From Candidatus Bathyarchaeota archaeon (GTDB lineage: Archaea > Thermoproteota > Bathyarchaeia > Bathyarchaeales > Bathycorpusculaceae): a stretch of DNA of 64,000 nucleotides. Every line of letters starts with the position of its first letter. Position 1 is the stretch's first letter. Both the position numbers and the translations under genes were made by a program. Below, in pieces: positions 1-17,382 of this stretch. Location of the stretch: the NCBI GenBank assembly GCA_963739305.1, contig CAVTZU010000013.1, positions 1 to 64,000 on the forward strand, written 5' to 3'. The notes below the pieces were generated by a model. That model made no database searches, had not been told where the DNA came from, and saw only the letters and a program-made list of their open reading frames with translations.

Positions 1-107
1 CTAAGACAGACTTCGCAGAGATAGACCAAGCGACTTGGCTTGCCGTTCGCCAAGATATTCCAGTTCGCGCGCGCTACAAGGGCAACCCGCTTTTGCTTGT
101 TCTTCAT
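1..107 (-). CDS. 5' part of a hypothetical protein running off the left edge (MKNKQKRVALVARANWNILANGKPSRLVYLCEVCL...)
   Basis: ATG at 107 on the minus strand, preceded by GGAGG; frame is open to the window edge. Confidence 0.5.
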   Translation of the reverse strand, partial: MKNKQKRVALVARANWNILANGKPSRLVYLCEVCL

Positions 108-160
108 CGAGTCTTCCTCCTAGTGTTACAGGTACGCGCTAAAACAAGAGTGTAGTTCGG

Positions 161-946
161 TTAGGCTTCATTGCTTGTGCTTGTATTTCGTTTCCTCCGG
201 AACAAGACCGGGACAATCGATACTCCGATGAGCAACGGCAACAACATGATAGGCAAGAATTCGTTAACAATAGAATAGTCTCCCACTCTTGCTACCTCAA
301 GTTGGAAGACATTGGATTCAAAGTTAAGGCTGGAATGCTTGTCTAAGTAAAGCACAATTCCTGACGACTTCTCGAACAGGACATTCGTTATCTCAGTTGG
401 TGTGCTCTGCCCGGAAGCGTTCCAGCATTGATAGGTTGCTCCATTCAGAGTTATGTTTTGTTCGTCGACAACGGCTAGGTTGTAACTTGGGGGATTCTTT
501 GAAGCTACTTGAATGTTGGAGCTTAGTGATGCGTTCGTCGGGAGAAGGAACGGGAAGGCCATCGGCAGATCGCTCGGCGTGATGTAAGGAAAGCCGGTGG
601 TGCTGGTGATTATCATATTGGCAACGTCCACCAACCAGTAGCTGCCATTCGCAGGTGGATTCGAAGATGGTGGATATTGTGGGGCATCATAGAAAGATTG
701 AAACGAGACGCCGAAAACGTCTTGGGATGGGTTGGCGGCGAAGGTGAGATTCCAAACTACGTTTGTATAGTTGATGCTTCCATCTGGTTCAGTTGCGGAA
801 TTGTTGTAGGTGAGGAAGTCACCTACTCTCGGGATCACAAAGGGACGTAGAGACTGCGCGTGTGATACTTGTTGGCCAAAAACCAGAGATAAGCAAACAA
901 TGAGTAATGAAGGCAGGATCAACCTTGAAATTAGTCCTTTCTTCAA
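161..946 (-). CDS. Secreted/surface protein with PEF-CTERM-like C-terminal anchor
   Basis: N-terminal signal peptide, many N-x-S/T sequons, C-terminal VNEF + TM helix + RRKR. Confidence 0.75.
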   Translation of the reverse strand: MKKGLISRLILPSLLIVCLSLVFGQQVSHAQSLRPFVIPRVGDFLTYNNSATEPDGSINYTNVVWNLTFAANPSQDVFGVSFQSFYDAPQYPPSSNPPANGSYWLVDVANMIITSTTGFPYITPSDLPMAFPFLLPTNASLSSNIQVASKNPPSYNLAVVDEQNITLNGATYQCWNASGQSTPTEITNVLFEKSSGIVLYLDKHSSLNFESNVFQLEVARVGDYSIVNEFLPIMLLPLLIGVSIVPVLFRRKRNTSTSNEA

Positions 947-1053
947 AATCCGTCATCTATATTATCTCAGTTCTCCTCAGGATTTTTATAGTTTTGGGTA
1001 AGGCGCGCGCGAAATAGTTAAGAGTTCGAATGCGTTCCGAGTAAACGGAACGA

Positions 1054-1454
1054 TTGTTCACGACTGGCGCAAAGCGTCCACGTTGGGTGAATAGAATTAT
1101 TCCTTTGTTGTATGTGCTCTTGGTTATTGCACCTATCGTAAATTATTTGGGGTATCCCCCAAAGGGAATGGTACTATCAGTGTTGAGATGTTGAACGGAT
1201 TAGTGACAGGGTCGAGCATACTTTTTGGTCTTTGTGTTCTTCCTTAAGGGAGAAAGAAAATGGAGAGCCTGCTTTGGCTTATGATAGTGGATGATCTTTT
1301 GCTGTTGATGTTAACTGGATTCGCTTATTTCAGACTTGCAATTGGAGAAAACGTTGGAGTGCTTGCGTTGGTTCTTACGGCGATGAGTTTCAACGCGAAT
1401 GCGGTTACTGCTCTGTTTCGTCATGGAGTGGTCGGAGAAGAAGTGGGCACGTAG
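1054..1454 (+). pseudogene. Fragmented small membrane protein
   Basis: Three consecutive hydrophobic segments in different frames (RIIPLLYVLLVIAP, MLNGLVTGSSILFGL, MESLLWLMIV...). Confidence 0.3.
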
Positions 1455-1516
1455 AATTGTTGCGTCGGCTTTGCCGTTTTGCTTCATGTCTATTGCGAAG
1501 TTTATTAGGTCTTGGG

Positions 1517-2113
1517 TTATCTGTGGTTTGTATGCAGGTGCAGTGGAAAAGTCGATAGGTGCAACTGAACCTGCCACGACCTCAAGTAGTCCGCTGGGTC
1601 AAATCCGCAAACCTTGATTATCTTGGTGCGTTCGTCCACGTTAACTGTTCGAGTCGGCCCTACAAAGAGCACTCCCGTTTCCTCATCAAGGAGGCTTTCG
1701 TTAATCCTTCTCGAAACGTAATCGTCTCTTTCTCGGACTGAATCCTGGAACATTTCAAGAGACACAATATCCAAAGGATTCTGCCTAGTCATGTCACGCC
1801 ATGACTCCGACTCAGCGACAAGTAGAGGATCTTCCGTTGCCTCGAACACGGCACCGTTCTCAACGAGTTTTTTCACTATCAGAAAGTTTTCATGCTGCAT
1901 AGAAGACAGGATAGCAAGACCTTCTTCTCCGCCTTGACAGATCTCATCTCGGTAGACTCTCTGGATCCTGCCAGCGAAAACCTTGAGCTTGTCCTCAACG
2001 TAACTCCAGAACTCTTGAGTCTTTTGCCCAAAATCCTCAGGGACAACTGACACGAGTCTTTTGACCTCGCTTTCGGTGTACATCCTTGGCACGAGAAGCA
2101 GCATTCTACTCAT
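1517..2113 (-). CDS. Conserved hypothetical protein
   Basis: 198-aa ORF with globular composition; TATA-like TTATAA at 2152-2157 upstream. Confidence 0.7.
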   Translation of the reverse strand: MSRMLLLVPRMYTESEVKRLVSVVPEDFGQKTQEFWSYVEDKLKVFAGRIQRVYRDEICQGGEEGLAILSSMQHENFLIVKKLVENGAVFEATEDPLLVAESESWRDMTRQNPLDIVSLEMFQDSVRERDDYVSRRINESLLDEETGVLFVGPTRTVNVDERTKIIKVCGFDPADYLRSWQVQLHLSTFPLHLHTNHR

Positions 2114-2164
2114 GGATTCATTCCTTTGAAACCGATCTGATATGCGTCAAATTATAAGCATTTC

Positions 2165-3157
2165 ATGGGGCTGCCCGGATTTGAACCGGGGTCTAGAGAG
2201 CCCAAGTCTCCAAGCCTAGACCAAACTAGCCGACAGCCCCTTTCGCAGAGTCTAGAACCCCTTCAGCCTATTAATGATTTTGCACTCATCGTAAAGACCG
2301 TAGCTAAACTTCAGCATTTGAGCAAAGCTAATCAAAAAGCAATCTGGAGCAGACTCACATGCTTGGGCAAACATGTTAATCTTCAGCTTTCTAGTGATGT
2401 TGAACGATTCATTTATTCTATGAACTGTAAGAATGTTTACAAGAACAAGCTCTTTGAGGCGTACGAGCGTTTTTGCTGTGCGAATGGTATCTGTTATAGA
2501 AAGCCGAAGAAGTTGAAGAGCGAAGAGTTTGTTATCAATGTTCCGACTGAGGAAAGAATCGACACGATCATTGCATGCTGCGGATGGGTTTACACGACAG
2601 TCTTCAACCTGAGCAAGCATGGTCTTAGACCTGATGAGATTGCGAAGCTTACGCTCAGAAACATTGACTTAGAAAACGGCAGAATTAATGTTCCAACGAG
2701 TAAGCTTGGCGCTCAACGTACGATTCAGCTTCAGAAATTGTCTGCAGATATTCTTAGGGACTATGTTCATAGAAGACGGATTTACACTCTTGACAAAAGG
2801 CTGTTTGGTTCGGCGGGCAAGATAAAAGAAAATTGGAGAGGATACAGGCGAAGAGCTTACGGGAAGTTTGAGGACGCTGAGCTTTTGAAAATAAGATTGT
2901 ACGATCTGCGCCACTGGTTTGCAACGATGACTTACATTAAGACAAGAGATATTTTCCGTGTCAAGTATGTTCTCGGGCACAGAAGACTCGAAAATACTCT
3001 TATCTACATTCATCTGGCTGAGGGTTTAGCTGACTTTCCGGGAGATTATGTTTGCGCAACTGCAAAAACAGTTGAAGAAGCAGCGAAGCTCATAGAGCAG
3101 GGCTTTGACTTCGTCACTGATGTCGATGGAGTCAAGCTGTTCAGGAAACGAAAATAG
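2165..3157 (+). mobile_element. Tyrosine recombinase/integrase overlapping tRNA-Pro antisense (possibly an intC fragment)
   Basis: Catalytic motifs GLRPDE (R), SKLG (K), YDLRH, LGH, TLIY (Y); N-terminal PGFEPG comes from the tRNA antisense. Confidence 0.9.
2166..2240 (-). tRNA. tRNA-Pro(TGG), no intron, CCA not encoded
   Basis: Cloverleaf GGGGCTG...CAGCCCCA, anticodon loop CT-TGG-GC, T-loop TTCAAAT. Confidence 0.95.
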
Positions 3158-3171
3158 CAAACGCGTGCGCG

Positions 3172-3483
3172 TCAAGATGGTTTGACTAGAACAGTGGCCC
3201 TTAGCTCCGCATACTTCCTTTCAATGTCCTGCTTGAACTCTGCGATCTCCGACGCGAGTTTCGTCTTTGTTTCTGTGTCGAGACTCGCCTTCATGATTCC
3301 CTCATCAACCTTTTCAATATCATGCAAAGTGTTGTGCTTCATTTCTTCAGTCTTCTTCAGAGTCTCCACCTTCTTTTTCTCAAGGTCTACCAATCGACTT
3401 CTGACATCCACTTCTCTCTTGTGAAATTCTTCTCGTGCCTTTGTAAGTTTCTTCTGAAGCTCGAAGATCTCACTCACTTCCAA
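3172..3483 (-). CDS. Coiled-coil hypothetical protein
   Basis: 103 aa, E/K-rich heptads, GGAGG upstream. Confidence 0.7.
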   Translation of the reverse strand: MEVSEIFELQKKLTKAREEFHKREVDVRSRLVDLEKKKVETLKKTEEMKHNTLHDIEKVDEGIMKASLDTETKTKLASEIAEFKQDIERKYAELRATVLVKPS

Positions 3484-3674
3484 TCATCCTCCAGAATACT
3501 TCTGGGTCATCGTCGAATAAGCTTTTCTTTGGGTCTGCCTTAGGCATAGTATATCCTGTGCTCAAATAGGCGTACGGTGTCATCTTTCTGAGAACTCTTG
3601 TAGCAAGAAGCGCACGCTTGTGGAACATTTCTCGCTTGAAGTCAAAACAGAGTTTGCTTTCGAGATTTTCTAGT

Positions 3675-3890
3675 CTACAGCTGCTTCTCTCTTTCAAGTC
3701 GGGCTAATTTCTTCTTTTTTCGCTTATCTTCTCTATCTTTCTTTTTCTCAGGTTTAGGCTTTTTCAGTTCTTCTCTTGTCTTACCTCTTTTGTAGCCCAC
3801 TATTGCCACCCTCTCATGTGAAAACAGAGAATCTTTATCTTCTTTTCTCATTTGTGTTTGAACTACTAATGCCTGTTGAGAGCCATACAT
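3675..3890 (-). CDS. Small Lys/Arg/Glu-rich hypothetical protein
   Basis: 71-aa low-complexity ORF. Confidence 0.3.
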   Translation of the reverse strand: MYGSQQALVVQTQMRKEDKDSLFSHERVAIVGYKRGKTREELKKPKPEKKKDREDKRKKKKLARLEREKQL

Positions 3891-3983
3891 TTCGATTCAG
3901 GTCAAAACAGGGATTTTCCACTATAGGTATCTATATGGGGTTTTTCGTGTTTTGAAAATGTTATACTCCATCTGATTCTTCAG

Positions 3984-4310
3984 ATGTATCCTCGGTTGAG
4001 AAAGAATTCTGGCGTATACTTTCATAGAAAGATAGATGAGAAGAGAAAAAAGGCAGGATTCACTTGTTCAACCGAAGTGAACGGATTGAATGTTGCAGGC
4101 TGGGTTCTGATTCCACTTCCTTTGGTTGGTCAATACCTGACTTGTCCAAATTGCAACATGCATGTCTCTTCAGTTTCAACCTACTGTAATTTTTGCGGGG
4201 CATTGCTGCGAACCAAACTTGTATTGAAAATCTGCCCTAACTGCCACAACAGAATTTCAGTCTCATCACGTTTTTGCCCAGAATGCGGACACAAGCAAGC
4301 GCAACAATAA
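3984..4310 (+). CDS. Double zinc-ribbon protein (true start probably further downstream)
   Basis: CPNC...CNFCG...CPNC...CPECG motifs. Confidence 0.75.
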   Translation: MYPRLRKNSGVYFHRKIDEKRKKAGFTCSTEVNGLNVAGWVLIPLPLVGQYLTCPNCNMHVSSVSTYCNFCGALLRTKLVLKICPNCHNRISVSSRFCPECGHKQAQQ

Positions 4311-4440
4311 TTTATGTAGTTTTACGTGTTTTGAAAAATGCTCATAGAATGCTGATAACGCCTTAATCTAGGATAGTACCGTCTTAAGAAAATCTACTAA
4401 GTCCATAGATTCAATCTCTGAACCACAATGCAGCGCGCGC

Positions 4441-5022
4441 GTGATGTACAAGGCAAACCTATCTTGGTCGAAGCTGCAAGACTCTTTCAAGAAACTTGAA
4501 GCAAAGAACCTAATCTACATCGAAACTGACGAATCCACTCGTAGAAGAAGAATTCGCCTGACTGAAAGCGGCGTAATCTTCGTCGCAAGACATAAAAGCC
4601 AACTGAAGGACCTCTTAAGCAACATGAAGAAGATAGGCCAGCCCAAGGGCGAGTCTCCATCTCAGCTGATAGACGCGAAGATCAAGGAGTTGGGCGATTG
4701 GCGGGGCGAGACGCTATCTCGGATCCGGGCTCTGATCAAGCAGGCCGACCCAGACGTCGTAGAGGAGTGGAAGTGGGGAGGTGTTCCGGTGTGGTCTCAC
4801 AGCGGGCTGATCTGCACCGGCGAGACGTACAAGAACGTCGTGAAGATGACCTTCTCCAAGGGCGCCTCGCTGAGGGACCCTTCGGGCCTCTTCAACTCCA
4901 GTCTCGAAGGTAACGCAAGGCGCGCCATCGACTTTCACGAGGGTGACAAGGTCGACGGGGAGGCCCTGAAGGCACTCGTTCGCGCAGCGGTGGCGCTGAA
5001 CATCTCCTCTAACCGAGTCTAG
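4441..5022 (+). CDS. Chimeric ORF: truncated winged-helix domain fused to a DUF1801/YdhG-like domain (own ATG at 4624)
   Basis: MYKANLS...RLTESG is a wHTH; IKELGDWRGETL...EEWKW...AIDF is DUF1801-like; GC content steps up at about 4620. Confidence 0.75.
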   Translation: MMYKANLSWSKLQDSFKKLEAKNLIYIETDESTRRRRIRLTESGVIFVARHKSQLKDLLSNMKKIGQPKGESPSQLIDAKIKELGDWRGETLSRIRALIKQADPDVVEEWKWGGVPVWSHSGLICTGETYKNVVKMTFSKGASLRDPSGLFNSSLEGNARRAIDFHEGDKVDGEALKALVRAAVALNISSNRV

Positions 5023-5431
5023 TCGACGGGTCCAACGATCGCTCGGTACTCCTCGCCTGCTACCTCTCTCGAACGCCAGCGGCTGTCCGCACGGCTCTGC
5101 CAAGATACGATCAGGGGATCTCAGAGTTGATAATCATCGTCGGAACGCCCGGCCAAAGCGGAGCCGGAACGGTTGCCCACTCCATCGGGACTCCGCAAAC
5201 ATAGCTGGGATGGCCGCGCGCGCGTTTTGGTTTTCCGGAAAAGTTATAGCTGAACAGCGTAGGATTCTATGTCTTCAAGGTGTGCATCGCTTCTAGGAAG
5301 CTTTCAAACAATGACCCTTCTATAGCGCGCGCTTACTTATTTTGCGCTCCACAGTTTGGACACTTCAGCATAGAACTATCAAGAGAAGAAAAATGGAATC
5401 GCAGTGTTACGGCTCAGTTTTCGAGGGGAAT

Positions 5432-5776
5432 TCATCTGTATTTCTTGGTGCCGCACTGCAAGATCTTGGGGCAGACGAGACAGTCGTCGGGGATAGGGAT
5501 GTCAAAGGAAATTGCGTCCACGAACACTGAGTAGTGAGCGCATTTAGCGGGTGAGTCGAAGACCTTGGCATACTCCATCGCTTTCACATCAACGACTTTG
5601 AGGCCTTCGACCTGAAGGTCTATCTTCGACATGCAGTGCGGACAAGCGTAGAACGTCTTTCTGGGCATCGTGGTCGAGTCTGTGAGGATGGTGGGTCTTT
5701 CAAACGACTTGCCACACCCGTTGTAGGGACATTTTAGCTTTGGCCCACCATGGAGGTGTAATGACGACAAATTCAT
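5432..5776 (-). CDS. Cys-rich zinc-finger protein
   Basis: CPYNGCGKSF, CPHC, C...CLVCPKILQC. Confidence 0.75.
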   Translation of the reverse strand: MNLSSLHLHGGPKLKCPYNGCGKSFERPTILTDSTTMPRKTFYACPHCMSKIDLQVEGLKVVDVKAMEYAKVFDSPAKCAHYSVFVDAISFDIPIPDDCLVCPKILQCGTKKYR

Positions 5777-5870
5777 CCTTCACAGACCCCTGCTATATAT
5801 CGTTAATATTAAGATTTAATAAAGCTTATTGTTGTTATGCACAACAAGAATACACATGACGGACAGTAAG

Positions 5871-5944
5871 AGCCTCGGCCGGGCTTTGAACCCGGGGCCT
5901 GCTGCTTACGAGGCAGCCGCTCTACCGAGCTGAGCTACCGAGGC
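5871..5944 (-). tRNA. tRNA-Thr(CGT)
   Basis: GCCTCGG...CCGAGGCT, anticodon arm GCTGC-CTCGTAA-GCAGC. Confidence 0.95.
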
Positions 5945-6007
5945 ACGCGCGCTTACTAGTGAGAGGAACCCTTATTTTTAAGATGTTCGGAAGTAGCCTT
6001 GGACGGT

Positions 6008-6800
6008 ATGTCCATGGAAAATTCAACTCTAGTAAAGACTATTCTGGAAAGAACCTCCGTCCGACATTTTTACAAAGAACGAGAAATCCCAGAAGACGTC
6101 GTAAAACAGATATTGACCGCTGGAATCCGTGCTCCCTCGGCGGGAAATATCCAGCCCAGAACCTTCATCGTCTTGAAGAATGAGGAGGTGAGAGAAGAAG
6201 TCTATCAGTTGTGTGAAGATCAAGCTTTCATGAAAGAGGCTCCTCTCTGGATCGTAGCCTGCGTTGACCTTCACCGTCACCTAAAGGCCGCAAGCCTAAC
6301 CGGAGTTCAATACGATTACACAGGCTTTCTTCCCTACACGATGAGCGTTCTAGATGCCGCCTTATCTCTGGAAAACATGACGCTTAGCGGCAGAGGCTCT
6401 TGGGTTGGGAAGCGTGATGATTGGGTCGATAATAGAACATCCGGAAGAAGCAAAGAAAATCCTGGAGTTGCCAGAACAGTGCTTTGCTATATGTATCCTC
6501 TGCGTAGGATATCCCAAGAATAAACCCCGCCCAAGAGTGAAATGGGACTACGACGTGATCGTTTGCTATGACAGCTACAAAGACGTTGAAATGGACGACG
6601 TTTCAGCTTATTGGAGAAACTTCATGTTTGGTGACTTGGAGCGAAATGAAAGAAAAATCCCCGTAGAGACCGTGGAAAAAGTCATCAGAGAAAGAAGCTA
6701 TGGGAGAACCTATGCAGATCATTACAAAGAAGACTTCGTGAAAACCACCAACATCAAAATAGCCGAGTTTCTGAGAAAACAGAATATTATGAAGAAATAA
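6008..6800 (+). pseudogene. Nitroreductase family protein, split by one extra base at about 6386
   Basis: RTSVR, APSAGNIQP, then LENMTL|AAEALGLGSVMIG continues in the +1 frame to ...VGYP. Confidence 0.85.
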
Positions 6801-6803
6801 GTC

Positions 6804-7811
6804 TTGACGAGGCGAATCAAACTGAAGAAAGTAAGAGACTTAGGAGAACGCAGAATAATCAAGATCATCCAGCGCCACCTAGACCGGACGCCAAAAATGG
6901 CCGTTCCTTTCGGGGATGATATCTCCGCGTTTGAAGTTGAAACCGGCAAACTCGTTGTCTTGAAGACTGACATGCTAGTGGACAAAACCGACGTCCCCCC
7001 GAGCATGAGCATGTGGCAAACAGCCCGCAAAGCAATCGTCATGAACGTCAGCGACTTTGCTGCCAAAGGGGTCAAGCCTGAGGCAGCTCTTGTTTCTCTT
7101 GGCTTGCCGAAAAACCTTACTCAAAAAGATGTAGAGGATATTGCAGCTGGCTTGAACGCAGGAGCGCGCGAATACGATACTTATATCATCGGTGGAGATA
7201 CTGGTGAGGCTTCTGATCTCGTAATTGCCATTTCACTCTTTGGAATGGCCGAAAGGGAAAAGCTAGCGCTGCGAAGCGGTGCGAGACCGGGGGACTTCGT
7301 TGCGGTGACTGGGTTGTTCGGCAAGCCTGCGGCTGGTTTGAAGATTCTTTCTGAAAACACTAAAGCTCCTGCGGAAATCAAAGAAGCCTTGGTCGACTCA
7401 GTTCTGATGCCTCACGCTCGTCTGAAGGAGGGACTTGCCCTGCAGAAATCCGCAGGAGTCAGTGCTGCAATCGATTCGAGCGACGGTTTAGCATGGAGTC
7501 TCCACGAAATTGTTGCAGCTAGCAAGATCGGCATCACCTTAGACACATTACCGATAGCTGAAGAGTGCAAGAGTTTTGCGAGCATAAATAAGCTCGACTC
7601 AAAGGCTCTAGCACTCTACGGCGGAGAAGAATATGAACTCGTCGTCACGGTGAAGCCTGATCACTGGAAAGATGCTTGCGCGGCTGTCAAAAAGGCCGGT
7701 GGCAGACTTCTCAAGGTTGGAAAAGTGACGTCGGAAAAAGGCGTCATGTTAAAGGTCGGTTCGGGACGGGTTGCTATTTCACCGCGAGGATATGAGCACT
7801 TTAAGTCATGA
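6804..7811 (+). CDS. thiL: Thiamine-monophosphate kinase
   Basis: GDD, KTDML, NVSDFAAKG, IGGDT, DSSDGL, GGEEYEL, GYEHF. Confidence 0.93.
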   Translation: MTRRIKLKKVRDLGERRIIKIIQRHLDRTPKMAVPFGDDISAFEVETGKLVVLKTDMLVDKTDVPPSMSMWQTARKAIVMNVSDFAAKGVKPEAALVSLGLPKNLTQKDVEDIAAGLNAGAREYDTYIIGGDTGEASDLVIAISLFGMAEREKLALRSGARPGDFVAVTGLFGKPAAGLKILSENTKAPAEIKEALVDSVLMPHARLKEGLALQKSAGVSAAIDSSDGLAWSLHEIVAASKIGITLDTLPIAEECKSFASINKLDSKALALYGGEEYELVVTVKPDHWKDACAAVKKAGGRLLKVGKVTSEKGVMLKVGSGRVAISPRGYEHFKS

Positions 7812-8052
7812 GACACTTACTTTTTCAGCGTCTCTTCGATCGTGAAGTGCAAGAAGGCGCGTCAATTCCCCGCGCGCGCCATCATCGCGCAACTCGACTG
7901 AAGAGAATGAAACACCTCAGACGCCGTTATTGGCGACGATCAAGGCTCAACGTTGTGTTTAATGTCTTTCAAAGGAATACTTATATTGGAGCCGTCTCGC
8001 TCTTATTTCTGTCTCGTCTCTGAAACCGAAATTTCGGGCGATGATAGGCCGC

Positions 8053-8364
8053 TTATTTCTTTCTTCTCTTATTTCTTTTTTTGCTCGACTTGACGACTGC
8101 AACAGAGCTTGCCTTGTTGAATCTCCGAATTTCAGCGCCTGGAAAGATCCGTTTGATTTCTTTAACCAGTTGATTCATGTCTACTTGTCCGTACGTCTTG
8201 ATGTCAACAACTTCTCTAGCATGTTCATCGTGACTGACTGCGACTGTGTATCCGGCGCCAACTTCGATCTGCACTGGTTCTACGATGAACGTTTCTTCAG
8301 AGTCAGCATCCGAATTGTCCGTCTCGGAGAGACGTTTGCTCTTCCGTTCGCTCATAAAGACCAC
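8053..8364 (-). CDS. Hypothetical protein with basic C-terminus
   Basis: 103-aa ORF with plausible beta/alpha composition. Confidence 0.6.
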   Translation of the reverse strand: MVFMSERKSKRLSETDNSDADSEETFIVEPVQIEVGAGYTVAVSHDEHAREVVDIKTYGQVDMNQLVKEIKRIFPGAEIRRFNKASSVAVVKSSKKRNKRRKK

Positions 8365-8499
8365 GCTTCAAAATGAAAAGTGCAAATAAAAAGGGTTGTT
8401 AACCTCGAATATTGATTGACGTTCTCTTCGAATAACATTTGCAGGAACAAGAACAAGGAAAAAGAACGTGTTGGAACAGCGTGGACATCAGATGGACTT

Positions 8500-9060
8500 C
8501 TAACGCCCGATTCTTTTGTCCATGATGAAGTTGAGAATCGTTATGCATGAGGCCGCGAGGTACGCCTGTTTTCCCAAACTGACCTTTTCTCCGTATCTCA
8601 ACACAAAACCCTCAACAGTTTTGGGCAGACCAATATGATCCCCCAGAACAAAAATCGGACAATCGTCCAGGCGGACCCTTTCCAGATCTTCGCCTCCTTC
8701 CTCTAAGACGTAGACTTGGTGATCTCTGGCTTTTTCTTTCAGAACAGCCTCAAAACTGACCTTATGCATAGACACACCTGGATGGGTTTCTCCGGATAAG
8801 ACTTTTCGCAGAATGCGTTCCCATGTTCCTTGATCAGTTCGCACGTCATAGAGTGTTCGTCCATCGAATTTCAAATGAAGCGGCGGCGTTGGCGGTCCAC
8901 TGAGCACGGCGTTGAAAACAACATTTCTTCGTAGTCCGTGTGACAGAAACAATGATGCGACGATACACTCATGAACGACGTCAAGGCGTCCTGCGTCGTG
9001 CAAGTTCCTGAATTTCGCATCCGTCTGACCCTTTCGTGAATACAGAATGAATTCTCGCAT
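8500..9060 (-). CDS. trmY: tRNA (pseudouridine54-N1)-methyltransferase (SPOUT)
   Basis: MREFI, AGRLDVV, LFLSHGLR, FVLGDHIG, VSLG...YLA motifs. Confidence 0.9.
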   Translation of the reverse strand: MREFILYSRKGQTDAKFRNLHDAGRLDVVHECIVASLFLSHGLRRNVVFNAVLSGPPTPPLHLKFDGRTLYDVRTDQGTWERILRKVLSGETHPGVSMHKVSFEAVLKEKARDHQVYVLEEGGEDLERVRLDDCPIFVLGDHIGLPKTVEGFVLRYGEKVSLGKQAYLAASCITILNFIMDKRIGR

Positions 9061-9175
9061 CTTTCTGACCAATCGAAGCATGATGTCTATCCAGAAGTTA
9101 TTTGTTGCGCTTACCACGCGCCTGTTGTTACTGCTCAAACAAATGAACTGAGAACACGTTTTTTTCGTAAGAAAG

Positions 9176-9249
9176 AGCCTCGGGCGGGATTCGAACCCGC
9201 GACCTACAGCTTACAAGGCTATCGCTCTGACCAGCTGAGCTATCGAGGC
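9176..9249 (-). tRNA. tRNA-Thr(TGT)
   Basis: GCCTCGA...CCGAGGCT, anticodon loop CT-TGT-AA. Confidence 0.95.
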
Positions 9250-9596
9250 ATCAGACTCCCAGTCGTATGTTGATTGGCGAGGCTTGATTTAAGGTTATTT
9301 GGTTCGTGTTTTCACTAAAGGTCATAACTTGTGAACCAGTCAATGGGAAACCGAGAACACGAATATGTCTCACAACGATGCCGAGGCTCATGCATCGAGG
9401 CAACGTTCCGTAGCTAGGGACGCAAAGAAAGAGTTGGATGCATCTGGTTTCTACTACGTAATCCTTATATCTGCGAAAAGTGCTTCTGAAGTAATTTGGC
9501 TACTTACTTGTAGCCATAAAAAAGATGCAACTCTCCACCGACCGGTGGTGAGTGAAGGGTGAAAATGAGCTACAGCAGCGTATGCTCACGATGACA

Positions 9597-9670
9597 CCAT
9601 GCATAGACTCAAGAACCTGAGCAGAAGTTTCACCGAAACGTCAAACAGACACTGCCAAAAGGTTCGATAT
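9597..9670 (+). other. 5' strand of the 23S pre-rRNA processing stem with bulge-helix-bulge
   Basis: 9597-9611 pairs perfectly with 12745-12759; CGTC-AAA-CAGACACTGCCAA pairs with TTGGCGGTGTCTG-GACG-ATA (12697-12716). Confidence 0.85.
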
Positions 9671-12688
<3,018 letters not shown>

Positions 12689-16413: not shown

Positions 16414-17382
16414 TTGAAGCCGTTCAAAGTTCTGTTGACAGATAAGATTGACAAGGCTGGAATCGAAATTCTCGAGGAAGTTGCAGACTTGAAATTCGCG
16501 TCATCTTCGTCGGAAGAAGCGTTGGTTAAGGAGGTTAAGGACGTTGACGGAATGGTTGTCAGAGTTCCCGCTGTTATTACGAGAAAAATCTTGGAGAACG
16601 CCAGCAAGCTGAAGGTGATCGCAAGGTTTGGCGTTGGGTATGACAACATAGACGTCGATGCTGCGACTGAGAAAGGCGTCGTAGTGACTTACACTCCTGG
16701 GGCTAACACTCAATCAGTTGCCGAATACGCGGCAGCTCTGATGTTCACATTGACAAAGCAGATAGTACAGGCCGACAGGGCTCTGAGGGAACACAGGTGG
16801 GCTATGAGGCTTGATTACTCTGGGATCGAATTGGCTGGGAAAACGCTGGGTCTAATAGGGACCGGGGCGATCGGCTGTCAACTGGCTCAAATTGCTGGGG
16901 GTTTCCAGATGGAAGTCATCGGCTACGATATTTATCCTAATCAAAAAAGGGCGGATGAAATTGGATTCAAATACGTCGATCTTGATTCCGTGCTCAGGCG
17001 AAGCGATGTTGTCTCTATACACGTCCCCTTGAACCCGGACACAAAGAAGATGATTGCGAAAAAGCAGTTTTCTCTGATGAAGGATGGTGCTTACTTCATC
17101 AATACAGCGAGAGGTGAGCTCGTGGATGAACAAGATCTTTACGATGCTTTGAGAGATGGCAAGCTCGCGGGAGCGGGGTTGGATGTGTTTGAGAAGGAGC
17201 CACCGTATGAAAGCCCCTTACTGACTTTGCCGAACGTGGTCGCTGGTCCTCACGTGGCCGCACTGGCGAAGGATGCCAACAAAAGAGTCAGCGTCTGGGT
17301 AGCCGAGGACATCGTTCGGGTTCTCAAGTATGAAAGACCTTTACATCCAGTCAACCCACAGGTCTTGGACAAGGAAAAATGA
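16414..17382 (+). CDS. D-2-hydroxyacid dehydrogenase (SerA-like)
   Basis: GVGYDNID, GLIGTGAIG, NTARG, LDVFEKEP, PHVA. Confidence 0.9.
   Translation: MKPFKVLLTDKIDKAGIEILEEVADLKFASSSSEEALVKEVKDVDGMVVRVPAVITRKILENASKLKVIARFGVGYDNIDVDAATEKGVVVTYTPGANTQSVAEYAAALMFTLTKQIVQADRALREHRWAMRLDYSGIELAGKTLGLIGTGAIGCQLAQIAGGFQMEVIGYDIYPNQKRADEIGFKYVDLDSVLRRSDVVSIHVPLNPDTKKMIAKKQFSLMKDGAYFINTARGELVDEQDLYDALRDGKLAGAGLDVFEKEPPYESPLLTLPNVVAGPHVAALAKDANKRVSVWVAEDIVRVLKYERPLHPVNPQVLDKEK

Follow-up and report, generated by a model that had tools for sequence, protein, structure and literature searches.

Archaeal integrases called suicidal (those of SSV, pTN3 and pT26-2) have PF16795 in common, probably share one origin and are tied to hyperthermophiles according to a 2021 review (PMC8371274); this and the following descriptions of known systems draw on excerpts of the cited papers. 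In the SSV1 type (type I), the attachment site (att) of the element, attP, lies inside the integrase open reading frame (ORF), and the att sequence is translated in the protein (PMC8371274, PMC3293823). The pTN3/TKV4-like integrases of Thermococcales, set apart from all other archaeal integrases in that review by their use of a tRNA gene's 5′ half (PMC8371274), have that half as their chromosomal site, attB, with 41 bp shared and a minimal site of nucleotides (nt) 2-44 of tRNA-Leu (PMC8371274, PMC5495485). Their integrase gene is split on integration, and the rebuilt tRNA gene, which loses the link to its own promoter, is described as being expressed from the element (PMC8371274, PMC5495485); the legend of S2 Fig likewise has the rebuilt tRNA-Leu separated from its original promoter, and recombination by these enzymes uses long identical segments with low sequence specificity, a biochemical property (PMC5495485). 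Integration at the 5′-distal side of tRNA genes has been called rare, with CalSub-E1 cited (PMC6563490), and an extra intron has been proposed to enter a tRNA gene from attP (PMC6563490, PMC3293823). Our full-text literature searches, with supplementary tables and figures outside their reach, returned no description of split-gene or 5′-half integrases in Bathyarchaeia. Here we analyzed a stretch of 64,000 nt from Candidatus Bathyarchaeota archaeon (contig CAVTZU010000013.1, positions 1 to 64,000; hereafter, the window), in which an integrase ORF runs antisense through a complete tRNA-Pro(UGG) gene. We consider it very likely that this ORF is the junction, attR, left by a site-specifically integrated and now decayed, immobile element whose integrase gene was split on that tRNA gene's 5′ half.

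The protein of 330 amino acids (aa) encoded by the ORF begins MGLPGFEPGSREPKSPSLDQTSRQP, and its first 26 codons are the exact antisense of the tRNA-Pro gene, which both ARAGORN and Rfam called (Rfam, 54.6 bits). The ATG at 2165 is made of tRNA nt 74, the discriminator base and one base of the downstream flank. The original prediction, made from the letters of the window alone, had described a frame open from this discriminator-overlapping ATG through the whole tRNA antisense, an ATTAATA box (2275-2269) within integrase codons and a next in-frame ATG at 2420, and all three are present. The junction, with int(N) and int(C) denoting the N- and C-terminal parts of the split gene, comprises the following features:

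2165..3157, plus strand: chimeric integrase ORF of 330 aa, int(C) at attR; codons 1-15 are the antisense of tRNA nt 75-34, codons 16-26 the att core and codons 27-330 element integrase.
2166..2240, minus strand: intact tRNA-Pro(UGG) gene, the sole gene for the UGG isoacceptor besides an allelic copy on contig C15.
2208..2240, no strand assigned: putative att core (nt 1-33 of the tRNA), of which the orthologous elements L174, L176, L180, L183, L191 and L192/L193 have a repeat at their far end.
2165..2207, plus strand: host-derived replacement of a 12-codon int(N), antisense of the tRNA 3′ part, as judged by comparison with orthologues.
2269..2275, minus strand: TATA-like box ATTAATA, a candidate replacement promoter 29-35 nt upstream of the tRNA 5′ end, within integrase codons 35-37.

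Comparison with ten other genomes of the genus, nine of which matched the tRNA region, revealed both the insertion and its side. Four of the nine (G008, G002, G001 and G010) have an empty site, in which tRNA-Pro(TGG) lies downstream of a homologue of the 114-aa ORF at 5432..5776, at a distance of ~160 nt, and tRNA-Thr(CGT) just beyond; in the window, the same spacing is 3191 nt. The order tRNA-Pro, integrase, tRNA-Thr(CGT) was found again in an independent assembly (L172), and the attR junction type recurs on C15 and on more than 15 independent metagenome contigs. Related integrases were assigned to Bathyarchaeia, and the 20 public sequencing runs that match the stretch are peat, wetland and sediment metagenomes. 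All twenty are kept as contigs, and four of them (three DNA, one RNA) were aligned to the stretch. Each of the three DNA runs gave, from one contig, a joint of 2242/2243 to 5531 with 18-28 letters on its shorter side; as evidence of excision we rejected these joints, which most likely come from other organisms with an empty site. In the RNA run the integrase was not covered at all, and a tRNA-like contig continues into unlike sequence.

Both ends of the element are preserved in close orthologues. Scanning with the window protein yielded 54 loci on metagenome contigs and 7 relatives on viral contigs. At no fewer than 15 of the metagenome loci, integrases 59-93% identical to that of the window overlap tRNA-Pro (TGG or CGG) in the same way, and the contigs with both ends intact on the same tRNA carry integrases that are 80-88% identical. 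In these close orthologues the full tRNA gene bounds the element at the integrase end, and a partial copy bounds it at the far end; on contigs with both ends, 6-10 kb separate this copy from the integrase upstream of it. This copy is a direct repeat of tRNA nt 1-33/34 at the loci named above, all with tRNA-Pro(TGG), and of nt 1-28 in L182, with tRNA-Pro(CGG). The partial tRNA-Pro copy with an int(N) fragment that the original prediction had proposed to look for in the genome is lacking there and present at the far ends of metagenome orthologues. At all nine far ends examined, an ATG 10-14 codons upstream opens an integrase frame that runs on into the copy (e.g., MTEIKDEPLRSA), and at eight of them a CTTTTAAGCC-like box stands ~24 nt before AGAGG and the ATG. 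This layout implies a free-form gene composed of its own promoter, GAGG, an ATG, ~12 codons of int(N), the att core at codons 13-23 and the rest of the integrase.

Distant homologues likewise have paired ends. In G002, an intron-bearing tRNA-Pro(GGG) is paired with a 36-nt stub over 6.4 kb, with an int(N) of 31 codons; G041 has tRNA-Arg(GCG), a 39-nt repeat, 12.9 kb and 10 codons; G043 has a 75-nt repeat, 6 kb and 15 codons; and G042 has a 24-nt repeat, 4 kb and no leader start. The attR tRNA-Pro(GGG) of G002 (C5, L054 and L055 joined, 9985-10107 and 16416-16451) contains a 44-nt D-loop insert that is missing from the far-end stub, and in G043 (L162, L163) a D-loop insert is present in both tRNA copies; these inserts fit delivery of a non-canonical tRNA intron by the attP of the element. 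A stub of tRNA-Pro nt 1-42 joined to the host upstream side (G004:C85, L051) was not used to define the att core, since a TAG directly before it in the frame of the integrase type studied here (int1) means that it may be another element's insertion.

Tandem insertions were observed in L176 (8292-8657), L192 (16506-16889) and L180 (after 6076), where the far att copy of the newer element runs directly into the N-terminal portion of an integrase that is older and 49% identical, so that a new leader continues in frame into an old int(C). The cargo of one complete int1-type element of 10 kb (L174, 1040-10050) includes small winged helix-turn-helix (wHTH)-like proteins, a weak PvuII-like match as well as a PQQ beta-propeller/PKD/CARDB protein of 1123 aa; no replication or capsid gene could be recognized in it, which makes it a cryptic integrated element.

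We propose the following course of events. The att core of the free form would be an antisense copy of tRNA-Pro(UGG) nt 1-33, with the rest of the protein encoded after it, and recombination with the chromosomal tRNA gene would put the element upstream of that gene. The full tRNA gene, made of att core and host 3′ part, would then abut int(C) head to head, and the far end would keep the host promoter, a 33-nt tRNA stub, int(N) and the integrase promoter. Because int(N) is left at the far end, the int(C) frame would run through the antisense of the tRNA 3′ part and meet a start at the discriminator base; in the window, 12 codons of int(N) would thereby have been replaced by 15 codons of tRNA 3′-half antisense. 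Parted from its native promoter, the tRNA gene would be transcribed from the opposite strand, within integrase codons ~27-41. Of this course, the insertion and its side, the att core of orthologues, the split-gene layout and the window's lost far end are shown by the sequences.

The window's own copy has lost its far end. The genome to which it belongs (G000) is an archaeal bin of 36 contigs with 7.8% contamination. Contig C15 of this bin holds a second copy of ORF198 (a minus-strand ORF beside the tRNA gene), tRNA-Pro and the integrase, with 95.5% identity over 1704 nt, and C15:1-5126 is syntenic with window positions 1456-5686 at patchy identity. Several further tRNA loci are duplicated in the bin, and in our reading the window's contig (C13) and C15 are two strain variants. 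The original prediction had found no second att copy in the window, and this extends to the 36-contig assembly: exact 10-mers from 2140-2300 gave no second att copy within window positions 1-12000, a blastn-short search with the tRNA, covering both locus variants and the entire assembly, returned nothing beyond chance 8-9-mers, and neither window nor assembly contains a second tRNA-Pro(TGG) fragment beyond the C15 locus copy and a tRNA-Pro(CGG) gene. The att core at 2208-2240 is therefore assigned by homology, and the element is immobilized. Between the integrase and the same host boundary at ~5378/5379 the two variants carry different cargo, which, together with the absence of the stub and leader module, indicates truncated remnants of ~3.1 kb (C13) and ~4.0 kb (C15). 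Their integrase copies differ by 37.5 synonymous and 12.5 non-synonymous changes (dN/dS = 0.08), and their divergence of 6.3% is some tenfold that of the adjacent host flank (0.65%; 2/308 nt), in our reading because element DNA was exchanged or the changes accumulated in mobile lineages, and not in place. Protein similarity of the C15 integrase is lost after residue 317, whereas its DNA can be aligned to the stop, probably owing to an indel. The surroundings of the junction are as follows:

2241..5378, no strand assigned: inserted element remnant of ~3.1 kb without far att end, with the integrase, three small minus-strand ORFs, a double zinc-ribbon ORF (3984..4310) and a wHTH+DUF1801 ORF (4441..5022).
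5379..5944, minus strand: host flank common to congeners, with the 114-aa Cys-rich ORF (5432..5776) and tRNA-Thr(CGU) (5870..5944).
1455..2113, minus strand: 3′-side material absent from congeners at this site, with ORF198 (1517..2113), which has no family, and an N-terminal fragment (1455..1577; 41 codons) of a second integrase.

Frames antisense to a whole tRNA are open by chance in 42 of 111 cases (38%) in the window's genome. As for conservation of the in-frame tRNA antisense, a check that the original prediction had suggested, the frame is open through the tRNA in 8/8 distinct homologues of antisense geometry that we examined and in 20/20 distinct close orthologues; these rows are kin, and the counts carry no probability. 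The first codon at all 20 distinct orthologue junctions is ATG (5) or GTG (15), the GTG consisting of nt 74, the discriminator A and the first C of the encoded CCA read in the integrase frame. From 2165 onward the window has no ATG, GTG or TTG in frame until TTG 2318 (residue 52), which with TTG 2363 is the only other canonical in-frame start before 2420, and both TTG codons fall in the folded N-domain, inside or after the first predicted helix (residues 39-48). The AlphaFold2 model has a mean predicted local distance difference test score (pLDDT) of 88.4 and a first helix starting at residue 39; residues 1-27, covered by few alignment rows, have a pLDDT below 50 and are predicted to be disordered. 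Translation of the chimeric ORF is thus favored by ATG 2165 being the only canonical start that keeps helix 1 and by the universal start codon at orthologue junctions, whereas it is disfavored by the integrase promoter, which stays at the far end after integration, as the far ends of orthologues show. We infer that the chimeric ORF may be translated from ATG 2165.

The insertion also changed the upstream region of the tRNA gene. Native tRNA genes of the window's genome have a gCTTAAa-like box at about -38 to -48, and in the four empty-site genomes the native upstream region of tRNA-Pro contains a CCTTAAAC box that fits this genome-wide promoter pattern. Upstream of the window's tRNA-Pro this box is absent, and integrase codons stand in its place. 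In each variant this locus is the sole source of tRNA-Pro(UGG), whose transcription must therefore come from element DNA. The ATTAATA box on the minus strand is at -29 to -35, somewhat closer than native boxes, which implies a short leader, and we infer that it is the working promoter of tRNA-Pro. The original prediction had proposed 5′-side integration with the element supplying the tRNA promoter; empty sites and far-end copies establish the side and the replaced upstream region, and the role of ATTAATA itself is the conjectural part of that proposal. Across 13 orthologues, which are kin, third-codon-position identity is 0.877 in codons 27-41 versus a mean of 0.74 (rank 1 of 133 windows of 15 codons), codons 35-39 rank first among 143 windows of five codons, and TATTAATGATTTT is common to 13 of 14 sequences; the TATA-like box falls within the most conserved synonymous part of the gene. 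This synonymous conservation fits a non-coding constraint, which could be either a promoter or an integrase-binding sequence beside attP.

Integrase-derived DNA also persists upstream of tRNA genes where little else of an element is left. In G005 and G004 only 66-114 nt of it remain upstream of tRNA-Pro, and on contig C20 of G000 ~90 nt upstream of tRNA-Gly(GCC) are 93% identical to the start of the intact integrase of G003. This tRNA-Gly(GCC) fossil (G000:C20:145671-145837) corresponds to the first ~56 integrase codons, and the similarity ends ~90 nt beyond the tRNA. The fossils upstream of tRNA-Pro and tRNA-Gly(GCC) lend independent support to the promoter reading.

We put forward a wider scenario tentatively, regarding it as possible but rather doubtful. 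In this scenario, Bathyarchaeia have a family of split-gene integrases that evolved independently and derives from Xer-like enzymes; the split would remove only a 12-residue leader, the antisense of the tRNA 3′ half would supply a new start (a GTG from discriminator and CCA or, in the other open frame, a T-loop TTG), int(C) would stay translatable and self-excision would be kept. Codons ~27-41 would also act, on the opposite strand, as a tRNA promoter that outlives the element as a fossil, and Pro-UGG and Gly-GCC genes across the class would run on integrase-derived promoters.

Other explanations of the overlap have to be weighed against these observations. A classical integrase, with att outside the gene, would have its true start downstream of the tRNA, leaving the open frame fortuitous. 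A parallel is the sister integrase L059, from a 16.2-kb IMG/VR record with a sense-oriented tRNA-Gln and a 15.9-kb provirus bounded by a 31-nt 3′ repeat in classical arrangement, whose integrase has its own ATG outside att, at the position of residue 42 and 30 nt after the tRNA-Gln; the predicted disorder of residues 1-27 and the 38% of antisense tRNA frames open by chance point the same way. Yet in the window the first start after 2165, TTG 2318, would delete helix 1, a conserved ATG-led ORF enters the att copy in frame at 9/9 far ends and the frame is kept open in 20/20 orthologues, so that we consider the classical explanation improbable. A homologue starting downstream of ~2280, which the original prediction had named as speaking against its own reading, was found in L059 only, in that different, sense-oriented arrangement with a 3′ att. 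The original prediction had also offered a fixed, domesticated dual-coding locus, where integrase and tRNA co-evolved in place with no mobile element. The lack of a far att copy on both C13 and C15 and the dN/dS of 0.08 between the integrase copies would suit such a locus, but it is hard to reconcile with empty sites in four congeners, with orthologues that are bounded by att repeats and varied in cargo, with an integrase divergence far above that of the host flank, which points to exchange of element DNA, or with the lost protein similarity after residue 317 on C15. We judge it very improbable, and as an account of origin it falls: the ORF is a junction product, mobile gene from codons 16-26 onward and host tRNA antisense in codons 1-15.

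If att were the whole tRNA gene, the element would carry a full tRNA copy and a start codon, and its integrase gene would not be split. The ATG exactly at the tRNA 3′ end, and the ATG or GTG there in all 20 orthologues, would then be expected, but the far repeats stop at nt 33-34 (28-42 in relatives) and are preceded by a different, conserved leader of 12 codons, and the GTG is explained by nt 74, discriminator A and the first C of CCA; this version can be practically dismissed. We give hardly any more credence to an assembly chimera, that is, unrelated pieces joined at the tRNA in a mixed-strain bin, as the contamination of 7.8% and the several duplicated tRNA loci might suggest, because the same junction was assembled on C15 and on the independent metagenome contigs, and in L172 together with tRNA-Thr(CGT) beyond the insert.

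Several observations nevertheless weigh against the attR-junction reading or against its extension to translation and promoter function. No free circular form occurs among the 54 metagenome or 7 viral loci, and neither a far att copy nor an int(N) module was found in the assembly of the window's genome. In the integrase tree the window protein pairs with L059 (SH-aLRT 100) rather than with the main antisense clade. Upstream of ATG 2165, the closest TATA-like box stops 5-6 nt short of this codon; in our reading the box better suits the divergent ORF198, so that transcription of the chimeric start is doubtful. L076 and L108 have a GTG or ATG exactly where the folded core begins, and the peptide encoded by att may therefore be left untranslated in some cases. 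In a stricter test of codon conservation over the TATA-like box, the longest fully invariant codon run was 3, a value reached in 859 of 5000 shuffles and not significant, so that the region ranks first in the third-position window test only, and the conservation of codons 27-41 could be that of an integrase-binding sequence beside attP, not of a promoter. An attR junction of a decayed element remains our strongly preferred reading of the ORF.

The window integrase is a tyrosine recombinase (PF00589, residues 150-285, E = 9e-16; Pfam) with a two-domain Xer-like fold and a small conserved C-terminal alpha/beta extension after the catalytic Tyr. Across a 58-row alignment K180, R249 and Y281 are invariant, and R185, H250 and H272 are kept in at least 90% of rows; we read the conserved Arg, Lys, Arg and His with the Tyr nucleophile as the presumed catalytic set. 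The best sequence-profile match, nearly full length, is archaeal XerA (PDB 4A8E, 5HXY; E = 6e-25), which is also the best fold match. The window protein differs from XerA in its C-terminal extension, and it scores 65.5 bits with the XerA chromosome resolvase model NCBIfam NF040815 versus a cut-off of 220. Multiple copies beside tRNA genes with att repeats indicate an element integrase rather than a chromosome resolvase.

Matches to this integrase family occur in 33 of 41 related genomes, many as C-terminal fragments, and G000 alone has 12 matches to the window integrase, many of them fragments. The stand-alone fragments in G000 match only the last 80-120 residues, including the conserved C-terminal extension (C13:152954-153181, C17:2725-2952, C1:45768-45989, C27:13806-14087, C9:26186-26524 and others), and similar C-terminal-only fragments occur in most related genomes. 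In a tree of 58 rows, from which att-encoded columns were left out, seven of the nine rows with antisense tRNA fall in one group, and at least 4-5 changes of the antisense label are needed, which indicates that orientation and side of attack switched repeatedly.

Targets other than tRNA genes were also seen. In a large clade of the family, at 11 of 40 loci scanned and in L017 and L019, the integrase lies directly downstream of the 3′ end of an archaeal RNase P RNA gene and in frame with it (L017, L019, L085, L095, L098, L109, L112, L113, L115, L118, L119, L124 and L133); in Bathyarchaeia, the family seems to target RNase P RNA most often. In L010, L069 and L070 the integrase continues from the 3′ end of a protein gene ending in a zinc ribbon (CPKCG...QTR.ADE...C.KC, read in another frame) that we take to be TFS/RpoM-like, which suggests integration into the 3′ end of this gene. 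L014 (1400-1460), L073, L074 and L083, from one subclade, share a conserved stretch at the 5′ end of the integrase that is not a tRNA and that weakly matches, in antisense, a C/D-box sRNA model (24.6 bits, under its gathering score).

The flanks of the remnant hold traces of further events. ORF198 and the second-integrase fragment on the 3′ side of the tRNA gene probably represent a second insertion. The second integrase is 27% identical to the first and is nearly whole on C15 (C15:4433-5919), with ~304 codons and a C-terminal frameshift; both it and ORF198 are absent at this site in congeners, whose flank 3′ of tRNA-Pro varies and has matches to scattered paralogues. At window 5225-5256 (and 5224-5380) lies a GC-rich motif of ~30 nt with a TTTTCCGGAAAA palindrome. 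It recurs on six other contigs, at least twice on four of them, and its summed contig depth in peat runs is 20-30 times that of its neighbors; the motif could represent a small repeat element located at the insert's decayed far edge.

The split gene and the use of the tRNA 5′ half, taken together, thus extend beyond the hyperthermophile PF16795 group to a Xer-like, PF00589-only family that is abundant in peat and wetland Bathyarchaeia. The insertion style is rare but known, and what is new here is the enzyme family and the orientation: with integrase and tRNA antisense to each other, the promoter of the tRNA is forced into DNA that codes for protein on the other strand. Annotation by gene callers will yield a 330-aa integrase in which residues 1-15 stem from host tRNA antisense, and island finders that seek only 3′ tRNA repeats will miss such elements. 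Past insertions can be recognized by short stubs of integrase origin upstream of tRNA genes, and should the doubtful wider scenario hold, several host tRNA genes (Pro-UGG, Gly-GCC) across the class would run on promoters of integrase origin.

Compared with the described systems, as far as the excerpts of the cited papers portray them, the locus resembles none in full. With pTN3-like elements it shares the tRNA 5′ half as att (here nt 1-33/34), the displacement of the native upstream region (here by 3.2 kb) and the split of the integrase gene. In pTN3-like elements, however, the passages imply that integrase and tRNA are co-directional, with the tRNA on the integrase promoter and int(C) on the tRNA promoter, whereas the window integrase is antisense, its family's integrase promoter module stays at the far end and the tRNA is not on the integrase promoter. 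The pTN3-like enzymes carry PF16795 and belong to hyperthermophile hosts; the window family carries PF00589 only, comes from Bathyarchaeia of mesophilic habitats (peat and wetland) and has an int(N) of ~12 codons. Neither the window protein nor L037 or L111 matched PF16795 at E ≤ 10, a search in which HMMER filters may hide very weak matches. With the SSV1 type it shares an attP within the integrase ORF, as seen at 9/9 far ends of orthologues, and only int(C) is left in the window. SSV1 uses the tRNA 3′ part and leaves int(C) beside a partial tRNA gene, whereas the window's int(C) overlaps an intact one, a difference in geometry that the original prediction had correctly drawn; an SSV1 integrase chain was not among the PDB sequence matches at E ≤ 10 or among the Foldseek matches listed. 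In pNOB8-type, or classical, systems att lies outside the gene and the integrase stays intact after integration, as in the sister L059, whereas int1-type integrases have att at codons 13-23. CalSub-E1 of Ca. Caldiarchaeum subterraneum (Sugahara et al. 2012) likewise recombines with the tRNA 5′ part, and its intron delivery can be likened to the 44-nt insert of G002; its recombinase, which was read as pNOB8-type, is on the same strand as the tRNA and does not overlap it, unlike the window integrase. On sequence evidence, then, the window family combines an SSV-type split gene with a pTN3-like insertion into the tRNA 5′ half, and differs from these systems in enzyme family, habitat and orientation.

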